This document shows, in pieces, positions 3,608 through 32,000 of a DNA stretch of 32,000 nucleotides. The notes below the pieces were generated by a model, which saw nothing but the letters and a program-made list of their open reading frames with translations, searched no databases and was not told where the DNA came from. Source of the DNA: Candidatus Thorarchaeota archaeon (lineage in GTDB: Archaea > Asgardarchaeota > Heimdallarchaeia > Hodarchaeales > Hodarchaeaceae). Every line of letters begins with the position of its first letter. The first letter of the stretch is position 1. A program made the position numbers and the translations under genes. The DNA lies in assembly GCA_048882505.1 (NCBI GenBank), contig JBHLRO010000009.1, forward strand, positions 91,894-123,893. The letters run 5' to 3'.

Positions 3608-4303
3608 TTAGGCGTCTGCGGTTTCCTGAATTAACTGTACAACCTGACCAACAACAAGATCAATGGTCCAATCTACAGAAGTATGTTTAGCCCTAACGTG
3701 ACCGGATCCATCAATGATAGATAATCCCATGTTATGTACCATAATTGTGTGATTCTCATGGCGAGTGTTATGAATTTCAGTAAGAGTAGAACCCCAATCT
3801 GCTGCAGACACTAGATTGCTTGTAACATTAGGATATCCCGCAAAAATACCGTAAGCACTTGTAACGTGTTCAATCTGACTTTCGTTTCCCCATAAAAAGG
3901 ACCATACAGAAGGATCAGCGCCATATTTCTGGGAATAATTCTTCATATCATCTAAACCATCATTCAGCCAGTCGAAAGAAATCGAAAGTAAATGGAAATC
4001 AAGGCCAGTAAACCCCTTATCTAAGAGGGCAGACTGAACACCTTTTAGCATTGAAGAACTAAGCGGGCACTTAGTCAAATCAGGACAGTTTGTATATATG
4101 AAGTCTACTACTACTACCCGTTCTCCGCTATTATAAGTTGCGAGTGTCACAGCTTCGTTGTTCTCATCCTTAAGGGTAAAATCAGGGGCAAGACCGAAGT
4201 CTGCTAATGGTTCTTTATAGGTCAAAATCATAAAAAGCGTTCCCGAAATCAATATTAGTGCTATCACTCCAATACCCAGAGTAAGCGTTCTATATGAGAC
4301 CAT
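3608..4303 (-). CDS. SCO1/SenC family copper chaperone, membrane anchored
   Basis: N-terminal TM helix, APDFTLKDEN, FIYTNCPDLTKCP (Cx5C variant of CxxxC), LLSISFD, and distal His in HNMGLSIIDGSGHVR. Confidence 0.88.
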   Translation of the reverse strand: MVSYRTLTLGIGVIALILISGTLFMILTYKEPLADFGLAPDFTLKDENNEAVTLATYNSGERVVVVDFIYTNCPDLTKCPLSSSMLKGVQSALLDKGFTGLDFHLLSISFDWLNDGLDDMKNYSQKYGADPSVWSFLWGNESQIEHVTSAYGIFAGYPNVTSNLVSAADWGSTLTEIHNTRHENHTIMVHNMGLSIIDGSGHVRAKHTSVDWTIDLVVGQVVQLIQETADA

Positions 4304-24972: not shown

Positions 24973-25734
24973 GTGATCGTGTTGATTGGTGTTGAAATCA
25001 TGGATAAAGGGTCAGGACTACCCTTATTTTCTTATGAATTCCGTCCTCACATGCTTTTTCACCCAGAGATCCGTGGTGGAATTATTACATCAATCATGCA
25101 AGTAATGGAAGACACATTTGGCGACCAAGTGCAAGCAACACGGCACGTTAAATATGGGCAATATGTGGCAATTGTTGCAGAGGGAAAACACACCTATGGC
25201 GTGTTTTTTACATACCAAACGGGGCCAGTTTATGAAAGGTTTATTGTTGACTTGGTTAACAGCTTTGAAAGCAAATTCGGCAAGGCTTTGGCTGATAAAT
25301 CATGGGATGGAGTTGTAGACACCAAACAGTTCGAGTTTACAAAGGAGTGCAATCAAGCGTTTGAATCACTCATAAAACTGGATACAGAAAAACTGGAAAA
25401 GTTATTGGAAATCCTTCATTCCCAAAGCGATTACTTCTTTGATGATATGCTCATCTATTCTAGACCAGAAATGAGTCAGATATACACACATTTAACAAGT
25501 GATCGTCTAGCTTCTGTGGGAGATGAAGTTGCAGCAACAATAAAGCAGGTCCTAGACCTTTCTAATCGAACACAATTTCCTATTAATAATTTTCAGCTTG
25601 GATTATCTGGAGAATTTTACGCTCTGCTATGGAATGTTTTCCCGTATGCAATTGTGATTTTTGTAGAAAAGAAGGATTTAGATCTAGCTCATTTACGGAT
25701 AACGGAGATTACTGACAACTTTAAGGAAGGGTGA
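24973..25734 (+). CDS. Longin-domain protein with a second roadblock/longin-like domain; the true start is probably 24979 or 24982
   Basis: N-terminal IMDKGSGLPLFSYEF...GGIITSI.......F...F...F pattern of Asgard-type longin domains. The C-terminal half has a beta-alpha-beta-beta-beta-alpha pattern. Confidence 0.6.
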   Translation: MIVLIGVEIMDKGSGLPLFSYEFRPHMLFHPEIRGGIITSIMQVMEDTFGDQVQATRHVKYGQYVAIVAEGKHTYGVFFTYQTGPVYERFIVDLVNSFESKFGKALADKSWDGVVDTKQFEFTKECNQAFESLIKLDTEKLEKLLEILHSQSDYFFDDMLIYSRPEMSQIYTHLTSDRLASVGDEVAATIKQVLDLSNRTQFPINNFQLGLSGEFYALLWNVFPYAIVIFVEKKDLDLAHLRITEITDNFKEG

Positions 25735-28439: not shown

Positions 28440-28853
28440 GTGGCACAATTTAGAACCTTTGGCTGGATCGCTCGACAAAATCCGCATGTTCGGGTTACAG
28501 AAGACGTTGTTTCAAATGATTCTGGATATAAATTCCCTCAGCTGTCCGATAAAGTCCCTCAATTGAATATCCCCTTAGAAGAGCGAAAAAAGTGGTTTAA
28601 AAGAGGTAGTCTCTGGCCTACAATGATCCTTGTCGAAAAAAGATATGGGGAAGCAAATTCTCAAAGAATTGAGCGAGCCTACGTGCGCGTTTATCGTCAA
28701 TCAGATGGTGCCATACTTGATGTTCTGGTCGGGGATAGCCTCGATCTCGCTACTCTTCTCGCAGTAGAATTTGGAGTTCCCCTATTTAGTGTAACATGTA
28801 GTAGAAAGGGGATGCGTGGGGTGGCACAACGTATTCCAATTGAGCTCGAGTGA
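28440..28853 (+). CDS. Hypothetical protein (137 aa)
   Basis: ORF fills the intergenic space and has a GTG start. No motif recognised. Confidence 0.6.
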   Translation: MAQFRTFGWIARQNPHVRVTEDVVSNDSGYKFPQLSDKVPQLNIPLEERKKWFKRGSLWPTMILVEKRYGEANSQRIERAYVRVYRQSDGAILDVLVGDSLDLATLLAVEFGVPLFSVTCSRKGMRGVAQRIPIELE

Positions 28854-28897: not shown

Positions 28898-29134
28898 TTA
28901 TTTATGGAGTACTTGACTGAACTTTAAAACAGTCGAGATAGTACGAACTACACCTTCCGTATCAATGTACAGCAGCCGTACATGCGGATGTTCCGCGTCA
29001 TCAAGACCGTGATTGTCGATAAAGAGATCCAGACCCGTTACGTCGGGCTTCAGCTCGTCCGCAGAAATACCAAGAGCTAGTGTTTCATTACAGATACTAC
29101 AAGGTTCGGTTCGAAGTCTAAGAATCTCATTCAA
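28898..29134 (-). CDS. Small putative Zn-binding protein (CxxC...H...H)
   Basis: CSIC...GL.LFIDNHG....HPHVRLLYIDTEGVVR. TTG start with GGGTTGA upstream; it starts 38 nt after the stop of the large surface protein gene on the same strand. Confidence 0.7.
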   Translation of the reverse strand: MNEILRLRTEPCSICNETLALGISADELKPDVTGLDLFIDNHGLDDAEHPHVRLLYIDTEGVVRTISTVLKFSQVLHK

Positions 29135-29171: not shown

Positions 29172-32000
29172 CTACGAGAATCGGTCCCTCTCATCAGAGG
29201 GATCAAAAGAAGGGGCTTCTTCGTCTGATCCAAGGAAATCCGCTTCAAAATCCTCCATGATGTCGTCGGAGATATCTTCGACCTCTGTTTCGATTTCCTC
29301 AAGGACTTCAACTGTACCTGAGATAAATGAACGAAACTCTCTTGTTTTTTGGAGAAATTTCTCCTTGGTTTCACCAGCCAAGAGTAGTTCCTTCAATTCA
29401 ACAATTCCATCCGCGATCTCTTCCTGAAACGTATGGGCGACCTCTGCCCATTTTTCCCGCATGAGTAACATTAGTAATAAGACACCTTGACCGCCTCCTT
29501 CTGGAACTTGATCAAGTGTGAGAGTAGATAGCCATTGTTGAGGTAGTGTCGATACTGGATACGCATACACTAGCGCCGTACACCCAATTTCTTCTATCTG
29601 GAAATCGACAAAAGTAGTCTGATCGGTTGCTCTTAGTTGCATAATAAAATCAACCGAATTATTCGCTTTATCAGCCAATTCTTTCAAGTACTGATAGAAA
29701 TTCCCAATCATGCTAGGTTCCCAAGCTAGGATACTAACAATTCCCTCCCGTTGACCAAATGCGCCCACAAACCCGAACATTGCTTCTTCCCCTATATAAG
29801 CCAAGCGTTCACTCCGACGTAAAGCAACATCGAAGCGTTGTCGGCGCACGATACGGACACGACGACGTTGGACTGCTTTGATCAACGTAAAGAACGCAAC
29901 AAAGATCGTTACAACCACCGCTTCCGCTGCAATTAATCCCACTACTGTAGTAACAAAAATTGGCGTTACATAAATCCGACTAACGCCAAATTCATCATTA
30001 TCATTGTTATCCACTACATAGACTCTATATTCGATTCTTTCGCTTCCTACCACATCTGTCTGGAGTGTAAGATAGTACAAAAGCCCATCATCAGTCTTTG
30101 GGGTCATCCTATCCCAGCCACTTTCTGTTTTTTTATCAAGAAATACGGATTTCACTCCACTGCCTTGATCCTGAACTGTAATCCCTATCCAGAGTACACT
30201 AGGATAAGGGTACTCTTCAATGATGCTATTTATCCTTGGTGCAATTATATCTGGAACTTTGTAATACTCTGTTTTGTTAACGACGTTATTGAGTGGTTCC
30301 CCAAGGTCACTCACTTCCACTGTAAATGAATAGTTCAGGTCATCAAGATATCGCAAAACAAAGCGAGAGGAGCTCAGTAGTGTATAGGCATCCAGAGTCG
30401 CATTGTAAAATAATGGGAGTATATCAACTGGAGTCGTCTCAGTTCCATCAGAATTTACAGATTCAACGATTAATTTAACCTCATTCTGATTAATTTTCCC
30501 GTATGCATCTGTCGCGTTAACTATGACAAAAGTACGCCCTTCTGTCGATTTACTGGGGAAGATGGTGATGTTATGAATAATCGGGGCAATAACATCTGTT
30601 TTTGTTGTGATAAAATAATTTCCAAAAGTGTTCAAATTCCCCACTGTGTCATTTAACAGTATTTGGAATTCTAACTCGTCTCCAAAGTCAACATTTAATT
30701 TAATGAAATATTCGGACCCATTTTGGATCATGAGAGCGCTCTTGGTCTCTCCCCCAACCTGGTAGACAATTCTTACACTTGAGGTCGCATCTCCAAAATC
30801 TGAGGTGTTCACACGAATAAGAACAGTGCCGTTTCCCATTTCACGAATAAAATAAGGATCAGTGACATTCGTGGAACTGACGATTTCAGGACCAGCGTTA
30901 TCCTGAATGGTTTTACTTAGAATTTCCGTTACATGAGAATTGTTCGCTTCATCGAACATGACGAAATAGAAATCAATTACATCATCAAAATCAAAATTCA
31001 CTAGCTCAACCCAATGACTTTCATTGTATCCCGCATTACTGATTTTGGAAGGAAAAACAAAGGTCAGATTTAGGTTAATATTCGTATCGATTTGCGTTCC
31101 TGTCCGATTATAGACAACTGTAACATTCTTAACATCGCTGGCCCATGTACCCTCGCTGAAATTCGCCCAGAATTTGTTTTGTATGACGATATCGGTTCTA
31201 GCGAGCCCATAGCTCGTAGGTACTGGCCCTTGAGTATCATTTACATTATTCAAGCCAAGAATCAGGATGTCATCAAACCAAACGTCAAAATATTCATTAT
31301 AATACTCTCGTGTATTGAGATATGCCCCCAGTTCGAGTGTAAAGTTCGCAGCGGGAACCTGAGGAACTGAAAAACTTCTACTAAAGTTAAACCACTGTTC
31401 GTCGAGAGTGACTTCGGGGCCCACCCTATAAAAAACGGTTCCATTAGGATTTTTGCTCGAAACGGGCCCTTCCAACCAAAATGACTTATTCTCATCATCC
31501 GAATTGCGGATACGAGCTCTAATTTCCTGGAAATCGTAAGTTCCGTCCAAAACTACTCCATTGGGGAGTTTAGTGTAATTATCAAACGCACCATCCGGGG
31601 CGTCAAAGCGCCATTTAAAACTGACATTAATCACATCATATGCGGCAGGAATAGGGAAACCTATTTCCCATCCTGCAGAAAGTCCACCTGTTATTTCTGG
31701 AAAAGATGAGTCATTAACTGGTTCAGCATTCCCTATTCTGACAAATAACGAATTATTAACATTGACCTGATTAGAAACTATAAATCCATCTTGGTAAACA
31801 GAGGGGGTCGAAACGGCCCATGGATCAGAACCTAGCACGTCCTGCCAGATGTTTTCTGCAAATTGGATTGCTCCGTTATTCTTAGTTCCTGTTTCATTCA
31901 ATAAAACAGTAGTATCTAATTGCTGAATTGCGTATCGTGGATTAAGGTTCGAGTCAAGAACGTTGTCCAGAGAATTTGCAGCTTCAGGGTCATCCCTTAG
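29172..32000 (-). CDS. Large single-pass surface glycoprotein with Ig-like repeats and a cytoplasmic uDENN/longin-like domain; 5'-truncated by the window end
   Basis: The frame stays open from 31901 to 32000 (LRDDPEAANSLDNV...). It has four D-x-x-[AG]-P repeat starts and about 26 N-x-S/T sequons before the TM helix IFVTTVVGLIAAEAVVVTIFVAFFTLI, then an Arg-rich stop-transfer, a ~220-aa soluble domain and an acidic tail. Confidence 0.85.
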   Translation of the reverse strand, partial: LRDDPEAANSLDNVLDSNLNPRYAIQQLDTTVLLNETGTKNNGAIQFAENIWQDVLGSDPWAVSTPSVYQDGFIVSNQVNVNNSLFVRIGNAEPVNDSSFPEITGGLSAGWEIGFPIPAAYDVINVSFKWRFDAPDGAFDNYTKLPNGVVLDGTYDFQEIRARIRNSDDENKSFWLEGPVSSKNPNGTVFYRVGPEVTLDEQWFNFSRSFSVPQVPAANFTLELGAYLNTREYYNEYFDVWFDDILILGLNNVNDTQGPVPTSYGLARTDIVIQNKFWANFSEGTWASDVKNVTVVYNRTGTQIDTNINLNLTFVFPSKISNAGYNESHWVELVNFDFDDVIDFYFVMFDEANNSHVTEILSKTIQDNAGPEIVSSTNVTDPYFIREMGNGTVLIRVNTSDFGDATSSVRIVYQVGGETKSALMIQNGSEYFIKLNVDFGDELEFQILLNDTVGNLNTFGNYFITTKTDVIAPIIHNITIFPSKSTEGRTFVIVNATDAYGKINQNEVKLIVESVNSDGTETTPVDILPLFYNATLDAYTLLSSSRFVLRYLDDLNYSFTVEVSDLGEPLNNVVNKTEYYKVPDIIAPRINSIIEEYPYPSVLWIGITVQDQGSGVKSVFLDKKTESGWDRMTPKTDDGLLYYLTLQTDVVGSERIEYRVYVVDNNDNDEFGVSRIYVTPIFVTTVVGLIAAEAVVVTIFVAFFTLIKAVQRRRVRIVRRQRFDVALRRSERLAYIGEEAMFGFVGAFGQREGIVSILAWEPSMIGNFYQYLKELADKANNSVDFIMQLRATDQTTFVDFQIEEIGCTALVYAYPVSTLPQQWLSTLTLDQVPEGGGQGVLLLMLLMREKWAEVAHTFQEEIADGIVELKELLLAGETKEKFLQKTREFRSFISGTVEVLEEIETEVEDISDDIMEDFEADFLGSDEEAPSFDPSDERDRFS

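Follow-up and report, generated by a model that had tools for sequence, protein, structure and literature searches.

A longin-tailed surface glycoprotein lacking the folliculin-type motifs, encoded in a conserved three-receptor array of a Hodarchaeales archaeon

The stretch of DNA considered here is a window of 32,000 nucleotides from Candidatus Thorarchaeota archaeon (order Hodarchaeales in GTDB; assembly GCA_048882505.1). It covers bases 91894-123893 of contig 9 in a genome of 4.3 Mb that is distributed over 83 contigs and is 94.5% complete. At the end of the window lies a gene for a predicted surface glycoprotein (the focal gene) whose cytoplasmic part adopts a longin fold. The gene comes third in a conserved array of three receptor genes. 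Its open frame runs on the minus strand from position 32000 to the stop codon at 29172-29174 and holds 942 amino acids (aa). The first-pass annotation of the window had placed the N-terminus outside it, as is indeed the case: in the full gene, retrieved from the contig, the start codon and the signal peptide lie ~135 coding bases past the window end. The protein begins with MKKLNFSHLIVLGVMIVVTLSSLEG..., which was judged to be a signal peptide by eye, without a predictor. At the window end, 100 N stand between exact 77-bp duplicates (L003 ~3895-4171), inflating the frame from 987 to 1,046 aa. This arrangement is a scaffolding artefact and not biology. With the artefact removed, the protein is 987 aa long, in keeping with its orthologues; the closest of these is 986 aa long and 85% identical to the focal protein, and a sister genome holds a frame of 987 aa.

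The focal gene is predicted from its sequence to encode a single-pass type I membrane glycoprotein. The in silico features of this class are all present: a signal peptide, one transmembrane helix, a positive-inside flank and an asymmetric distribution of N-x-S/T sequons, with 26 ahead of the helix and one behind it. Shuffles of the ectodomain with the same residues (n = 2000) gave 9.0 ± 2.6 sequons and none attained 26. Moreover, 38 orthologues carry 22-35 sequons outside and 0-2 inside. Signal peptide, sequon asymmetry and the basic stretch QRRRVRIVRRQR directly after the helix together argue for an outside-in orientation. The transmembrane helix has a hydropathy of 2.58, and a spacer of 29 residues separates it from the longin domain. 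Within the membrane, a glutamate (AAEAV, residues 691-695, positions 29916-29930) is present in 33 of the 38 orthologues that have the helix, with glutamine in four and aspartate in one. It may be speculated that this conserved residue would fit an association of subunits within the membrane. The juxtamembrane linker that follows (residues 711-740) is the most conserved segment of the protein, with 75% identity to the orthologues. Much of this had been read from the letters at first pass and is borne out here: ~26 sequons before the helix versus one after it, repeated D-x-x-[AG]-P units in the ectodomain, a Glu-bearing helix followed by the basic stretch, the predicted outside-in topology, and the quoted cytoplasmic strings and acidic tail, which are present in the translation.

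The ectodomain was modeled with AlphaFold2 (AF2) from 40 orthologous rows. The model is all-beta with a predicted local distance difference test score (pLDDT) of 85, and shows an N-terminal jelly-roll followed by four Ig/FN3-like domains. The jelly-roll is the best-conserved part of the ectodomain (55% identity to orthologues). The D-x-x-[AG]-P units start at residues 255, 367, 469 and 584; those at 255, 469 and 584 immediately precede the first strand of a predicted Ig-like domain, while the unit at 367 lies farther from the next long strand. In the Foldseek search with this model, the MAM-Ig-FN3 part of RPTPmu ranked first (E 7e-15), gp130/LepR/LIFR and Eph receptors were also matched, and bacterial adhesins and an archaeal S-layer protein ranked lower. 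The likeness to metazoan receptors is one of architecture and is not evidence of homology.

The cytoplasmic domain has the longin fold. An AF2 model based on 124 aligned tails reached a pLDDT of 83 and a predicted template modeling score of 0.82, and its DSSP assignment reads E11-20, E25-31, H33-59, E64-72, E75-86, E109-118, H119-144 and H149-187 (E, strand; H, helix). The order beta-beta-alpha-beta-beta-beta-alpha-alpha, with a five-stranded antiparallel sheet, is the longin topology. In an exhaustive structural comparison (VIA) of the tail model with 48,161 PDB chains, the first match was the Asgard longin 8yqg (Z 13.9, root-mean-square deviation [rmsd] 2.8 Å over 137 residues). Tied behind it were Lst4 (Z 11.4), FLCN (11.3), C9orf72 (11.2), DENND1A (11.1), SMCR8 (11.0) and FNIP2 (10.9), with subunit names deduced from chain length and residue range. 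A GATOR1 subunit (Z 9.7) and SNARE, TRAPP and adaptor longins (Z 7-9.6) came further down; rows 1-23 are all longin-fold entries and the first roadblock appears at rank 24. The ESM Atlas returned Asgard longin-GTPase fusions (TM-score 0.66) and eukaryotic C9orf72 (0.62), and the longin matches overall have TM-scores of 0.58-0.68. Only two helices and an acidic tail of 27 aa, whose length differs among orthologues, follow the longin sheet before the protein ends at window residue 942. No core or downstream DENN domain was seen in the model after the longin domain, and there was no DENN match in Pfam at E<=1. Hence, the focal tail is not a DENN-type exchange factor.

Pfam gave no receptor match above threshold with either the focal protein or the full-length orthologue P0153. 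The C-terminal helices gave matches to RnlB_antitoxin and CoV_NSP2_C (E 0.004-0.03), which were dismissed as chance. PDB sequence profile searches with three family alignments returned helical-bundle noise only and recovered none of FLCN, NPRL2 and SMCR8.

The focal longin belongs to a family of receptor tails of the Heimdall group. A profile built from four paralogous tails finds the domain ten times in this genome, always as the C-terminal part of a frame; these frames measure 823 to 10,069 aa. The focal tail matches this profile with E 4e-71, a value to be read with the focal tail being one of the profile's rows; independent support for membership comes from its BLASTP match to the paralogue P0002 (E 1e-19). 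Among 1.84 billion proteins the family profile matches 177 cluster representatives, and the source names of the homologues are throughout Heimdallarchaeota, Hodarchaeota or Hodarchaeales. Within the class, the canonical tail is strong in three families, and elsewhere in the phylum it is weak. The full-length matches are sequon-rich proteins that end in the domain, with 22-36 residues between it and a preceding, strongly hydrophobic transmembrane helix. There are also short matches that have no such helix, some of which are probably fragments. P0068, P0087, P0090, P0091, P0093, P0112 and P0142 (~280-590 aa) are examples with no upstream hydrophobic helix and may be either soluble versions or fragments.

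The canonical members of the family carry a folliculin-type signature. A 2025 survey describes a GP motif, located in the loop that leads into strand 2, together with a neighboring arginine finger, as the mark of GTPase-activating protein (GAP)-type longins of the FLCN/NPRL2/SMCR8 group, finds the same pair in heimdallarchaeial "FLCN/SMCR8-type" longins and reports the GP motif to be missing from FNIP2, NPRL3, DENND, TRAPP and adaptor longins (PMC12290439). In 116 canonical tails, the glycine and the second proline of GPxP in FFDQxxGPxP are invariant and the first proline is kept in >=90%; so is the arginine of ARGG (also >=90%), in the loop before strand 5. Pfam Folliculin (PF11704) matches 33 of the 124 tails weakly (best E 1.8e-4; the runner-up family matches 5), though not the focal tail. 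One nearby Atlas cluster (score 0.87) has Pfam NPR2 (PF06218) in 19% of its members. A homologue search at near length with the canonical profile gave Asgard fragments only, none of them annotated as folliculin.

The focal copy has lost both elements of the signature. At the GP site the proline is replaced and the 38 tail-bearing orthologues share the change, with G-[VIST] at this position. The finger position is variable across the same orthologues (G/A/R/P/E/S/D), with arginine in 5 of the 38. Having neither the GP motif nor the conserved arginine of the folliculin/SMCR8/NPRL2 GAP longins, the focal tail is unlikely to act alone on a GTPase. At the same time the domain is well conserved: identity to the orthologues is 70% for the longin domain and 36-44% for the Ig domains, and the 13-aa insert that distinguishes the subfamily is itself 76% conserved. 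In a quick maximum-likelihood tree of the tails, support for the focal clade is 100%; its stem measures 2.77 substitutions per site and its internal branches are short. This pattern fits a change of function and not decay. The same tree shows a second long-stem clade (P0137, P0140, P0145-P0147, P0151 and P0152; stem 2.15 substitutions per site), which keeps FDQ[RK]KG[PA]IP with a divergent continuation (..DHSL) and is a candidate specialized subfamily.

The gene order around the focal gene is also conserved. Its upstream neighbor, 3 nt away, encodes a receptor with a canonical tail that has both motifs; between this tail and the focal one, identity is 28% (BLASTP E 1e-19). In all five loci examined, i.e., this genome and four other assemblies, one of them labeled Candidatus Hodarchaeum mangrovi, a canonical receptor of ~1,540 aa ends 3-13 nt upstream of the focal gene. 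Related loci were sought with nine close tails, a search that by design finds close relatives only. The array reads giant receptor (up to ~10,000 aa), ~1,540-aa receptor, focal gene, and both receptors ahead of the focal gene bear the motifs. Judged by tail spacing, all three tails stand in series on one contig in eight sister genomes; in three further genomes the focal tail has a second tail ~2.9 kb away, a distance that fits the receptor pair. In the present genome the array is split between contigs. Contig 9 ends inside the body of the upstream receptor (L003 4210-7032). At the end of contig 10 (L017), the stop codon of a 10,069-aa frame overlaps the start of a next receptor, of which the first 207 codons remain. 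Since this partial receptor can be aligned, in colinear order, to the N-terminal part of another member of its subfamily, a receptor of ~1,533 aa (40% identity, E 2e-16), contig 10 appears to join the end of contig 9, with ~390 codons apparently missing in between. Sixteen of the 21 other genomes of the genus have one copy each of the focal subfamily; among the 62 other genomes of the class, none has it.

Table 1. Features at the focal locus, in window coordinates; residues are counted along the in-window frame.
Feature	Position	Strand	Evidence or remark
Focal receptor gene, in-window part	29172..32000	-	942/987 codons; stop 29172-29174
77-bp stretch duplicated 100 N further along the contig	31924..32000	.	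Scaffolding artefact inside the gene
N-terminal beta-sandwich (jelly-roll), residues 29-251	31248..31916	-	AF2, Foldseek, conservation
Four Ig/FN3-like domains, residues 255-680, sequon-dense	29961..31238	-	AF2, Foldseek, sequon count
Transmembrane helix, residues 681-710	29871..29960	-	Hydropathy
Basic stop-transfer QRRRVRIVRRQR and juxtamembrane linker, residues 711-740	29781..29870	-	Directly after the transmembrane helix
Cytoplasmic longin domain, residues 741-915, 175 aa	29256..29780	-	AF2, VIA, Atlas
E-G-I-V replacing the GP motif, loop before strand 2, Pro lost	29736..29747	-	Alignment, model
13-aa subfamily insert (within VSTLPQQWLSTLTLDQVP), then EGGGQG replacing ARGG, Arg lost	29484..29555	-	Alignment
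Acidic C-terminal tail (19 D/E in last 42 residues), with the end of helix 3	29175..29300	-	
Conserved 78-aa gene, 37 nt downstream of focal gene	28898..29134	-	Found at this position in four other genomes as well
Conserved 137-aa gene, convergent on the array	28440-28853	+	56-59% identity in four genomes

Downstream of the focal gene, the product of the 78-aa gene is 58-64% identical in four genomes and has 36 invariant residues, including one C-x-x-C; it falls in Asgard-only Atlas clusters and in no Pfam family. This gene may be the last of the array. Beyond it come two conserved genes in convergent orientation (~137 and ~172 aa) and then a class I lysyl-tRNA synthetase gene. The 137-aa product has an invariant C-terminal CSRKGxRG..QRI motif and no Pfam match. 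Elsewhere in the window, a frame of 253 aa (24973-25734, plus strand), marked at first pass as longin plus roadblock, has no Pfam match at E<=0.01.

Is the receptor family linked to small GTPases? The genome carries 56 Ras-superfamily matches, Rag-like GTPases among them. Seven genes are strong Gtr1/RagA-type matches, and five of the seven are close to tail genes, namely to three of the ten, at distances of up to ~5 kb (four within ~3 kb). On contig 1, a Rag-like gene of 300 aa (PF04670, E 7e-39; L013 2061-2963, plus strand) starts 56 nt downstream of the gene for a 3,684-aa receptor. Further Rag/Gtr1-type genes stand beside tail paralogues on contig 4 (~50.0-51.4 kb) and contig 50 (~4.0-4.5 kb). 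By our own rough estimate, chance would give ~0.1 of ten tails with a Rag-like neighbor within 3 kb. Because three paralogues are flanked by Rag-like GTPase genes, a small-GTPase link is plausible at the level of the family. The first-pass annotation had proposed GTPase signaling for the focal protein; what survives of this is the family-level link, while the focal gene itself has no GTPase gene nearby. A predicted complex of the focal tail with the tail of the upstream receptor scored 0.01, below the mark, and counts neither for nor against binding.

Another surface protein is encoded on contig 9, ~10 kb before the window, beside the gene for a Rab-like GTPase of 192 aa. It is sequon-rich, 1,616 aa long (L022 2469-7319, minus strand) and has a repeat-rich ectodomain, a transmembrane-like hydrophobic stretch and a cytoplasmic tail of ~330 aa that the receptor-tail family profile does not match. 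If that tail were a longin, the same genome would hold a second, independent receptor-longin design.

With these features in hand, we infer that the focal tail is an FNIP/NPRL3-like non-catalytic partner in a membrane-tethered longin GTPase regulator, a reading to which we assign a probability of roughly one half. In this model the longin sheet would mediate pairing of the focal tail with a tail of the catalytic type, on a receptor encoded in the same array. The resulting longin dimer would be tethered to the membrane, and its activity toward Rag- or Arf-like GTPases would respond to whatever the ectodomains bind. A broader version is held more tentatively: Hodarchaeales may possess a receptor-tethered, folliculin:FNIP-like machine in which two or three co-encoded receptors juxtapose catalytic-type and degenerate tails, so that extracellular binding sets the nucleotide state of a Rag- or Arf-like GTPase. 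We consider this extension doubtful as a whole.

Several observations weigh against the pairing model. Longin domains can also be exchange factors or simple docking modules. The array has no small-GTPase gene in its vicinity, the nearest Ras-type gene being ~45 kb and a weak Rag-like match ~33 kb away. The loss of activity may be incomplete, since arginine is present at the finger position in a minority of the orthologues and the glycine of the GP motif is mostly kept. In the quick tree, the focal clade and the tails of the ~1,540-aa receptors are grouped with weak support (31). Moreover, sequence kinship to eukaryotic folliculin amounts to sub-threshold Pfam matches, and these occur in the paralogues only. 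That ARGG corresponds to the position of FLCN Arg164 is deduced from where its loop falls in the predicted secondary structure and from the account given in the literature.

The alternatives differ in how much of the evidence they accommodate. A PAS/LOV-like sensor domain in place of a longin is what the E-value ranking of Foldseek would suggest for the cytoplasmic part, with LOV/PAS chains first, and PAS clusters are present in the ESM Atlas list as well. However, the LOV/PAS matches of Foldseek have TM-scores of 0.33-0.39 at an rmsd of 9-35 Å, and the PAS matches over both searches have TM-scores of 0.33-0.46 at 7-35 Å, to be set against the longin Z-scores of up to 13.9. PAS chains are absent from the 50 best VIA matches, and one helix between strands 2 and 3 with two C-terminal helices is the longin order and not that of PAS. 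The PAS reading was rejected on TM-score, rmsd and topology, and there is next to no chance that it is correct. Hardly more probable is that the focal gene is a duplicate in decay, in which case the receptor would be a redundant paralogue and its tail would be on the way to losing its function. The loss of both signature motifs and the long stem branch could be read in this way, but no part of the protein is better conserved than the tail (70-75% versus 36-44% for the Ig domains), the insert is conserved and the branches within the clade are short. In addition, the gene is single-copy and intact in this genome and in the 16 of 21 genus genomes that have it, with no stop codons seen in those matches. 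Decay is thus disfavored by the high conservation of the tail and the short branches of the clade.

An autonomous single-chain sensor, with a uDENN-like tail that would itself regulate a small GTPase in the manner of DENN-type exchange factors, was the proposal made at first pass, and we judge it very unlikely. The fold assignment behind it was right, as the longin fold is that of uDENN, DENND1A is among the tied best eukaryotic matches in the structure search together with FNIP/Lst4, FLCN and C9orf72-SMCR8, and the protein does have a receptor-like topology. What did not stand is the DENN module: core and downstream DENN domains do not follow the longin fold, no DENN family of Pfam is matched and the focal copy has lost the GP and arginine motifs of its own family. 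Nor does a stand-alone sensor agree with a gene that always occurs within the three-receptor array and has no GTPase gene adjacent to it. A stronger competitor, possible if still unlikely, is that the tail is a longin platform that has no catalytic partner and serves as a homodimer or as a docking site for a GTPase, an adaptor or cytoskeletal/ESCRT machinery, in the manner of SNARE, TRAPP or adaptor-complex sigma longins. The protein would then be chiefly an adhesin or envelope protein that cytoplasmic factors anchor or sort. SNARE, TRAPP and adaptor longins are not far under the top VIA group, the solved Asgard longin 8yqg is dimeric according to its title, and the ectodomain is as similar to adhesins and S-layer proteins as it is to receptors. 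The conserved glutamate in the membrane and the acidic tail suggest protein-protein contacts and not catalysis. On the other hand, the tail derives from a family strongly selected for GAP-type motifs, its strict adjacency to motif-bearing paralogues is kept, and other paralogues of the family are linked to Rag-like GTPase genes.

What would follow from such pairing? The folliculin-type signature is found here on the cytoplasmic end of giant, predicted-glycosylated surface proteins, and the locus adds a conserved, motif-less sister in the same array as motif-bearing receptors. If the pairing model is true, a division of labor between catalytic and pseudo-catalytic longins would exist also in archaea and would have arisen in parallel. 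If the focal tail is only a docking module, the locus would still show cleanly how the ectodomains of a receptor family can diversify while the inner module stays conserved. Three defined polypeptides, together with the Rag-like GTPases of the same genome, make it possible to test an archaeal pairing of catalytic and non-catalytic longins and a connection between the cell surface and the GTPase switches of Asgard archaea. The longin GAP complexes folliculin-FNIP, GATOR1 and C9orf72-SMCR8 control Rag/Arf GTPases in eukaryotic nutrient signaling; Hodarchaeales have been placed among the closest archaeal relatives of eukaryotes.

Among known systems, some resemble the focal protein outside the cytoplasmic fold. 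RPTPmu, Eph receptors and gp130/LepR have the same build, i.e., an N-terminal beta-sandwich, a string of Ig/FN3 domains, one transmembrane helix and a cytoplasmic signaling domain. The likeness is restricted to architecture, with TM-scores of 0.15-0.28 and 8-11% identity, and the cytoplasmic module of the focal protein is a longin and not a kinase or phosphatase. The 1,616-aa receptor of the same genome shares a sequon-rich ectodomain with the focal protein and differs from it by its longer, unmatched tail and its adjacent GTPase gene. As regards the inner domain, DENND1A and the DENN-domain Rab exchange factors have a uDENN module with the longin fold. Their catalytic surface is formed by the core and downstream DENN domains, both of which are absent from the focal tail.

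FLCN, SMCR8 and NPRL2 belong to the same fold class as the focal tail. In the canonical paralogues, FFDQxxGPxP and ARGG stand where the published motifs are placed; the focal copy has lost both. Asgard longins of the FLCN/SMCR8 type and NPRL2-like longins are already in the literature, but not, in the literature searched, on transmembrane surface proteins; the paper that describes the FLCN/SMCR8-type longins mentions no membrane or extracellular context for them (PMC12290439). Longin tails on proteins of this kind went undescribed in the literature searched, which is not proof of their absence.

The closest parallel is with FNIP1/2 (Lst4 in yeast) and NPRL3, which have the longin fold in common with the focal tail. 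FNIP pairs with FLCN, and NPRL3 pairs with NPRL2. Like FNIP and NPRL3, the focal tail has neither the GP motif nor the arginine finger, while a co-encoded relative keeps both: the motif-less longin has a catalytic-type paralogue 3-13 nt upstream in the five loci, and the spacing fits in 11 further genomes. The focal tail has a large insert before strand 5, and the longin domain of FNIP2 likewise spans a long stretch of chain (residues 42-409). Unlike FNIP and NPRL3, the focal tail has no C-terminal DENN domain, is tethered to the membrane on a 987-aa glycoprotein and shows no detectable sequence similarity to them; for the focal tail, a heterodimer is a proposal. To our knowledge, the division into catalytic and pseudo-catalytic longin subunits has so far been known only from the eukaryotic FLCN-FNIP, GATOR1 and C9orf72-SMCR8 complexes. 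Since the degenerate copy arose within one genus, the likeness of the array to these eukaryotic pairs would reflect parallel evolution rather than ancestry.

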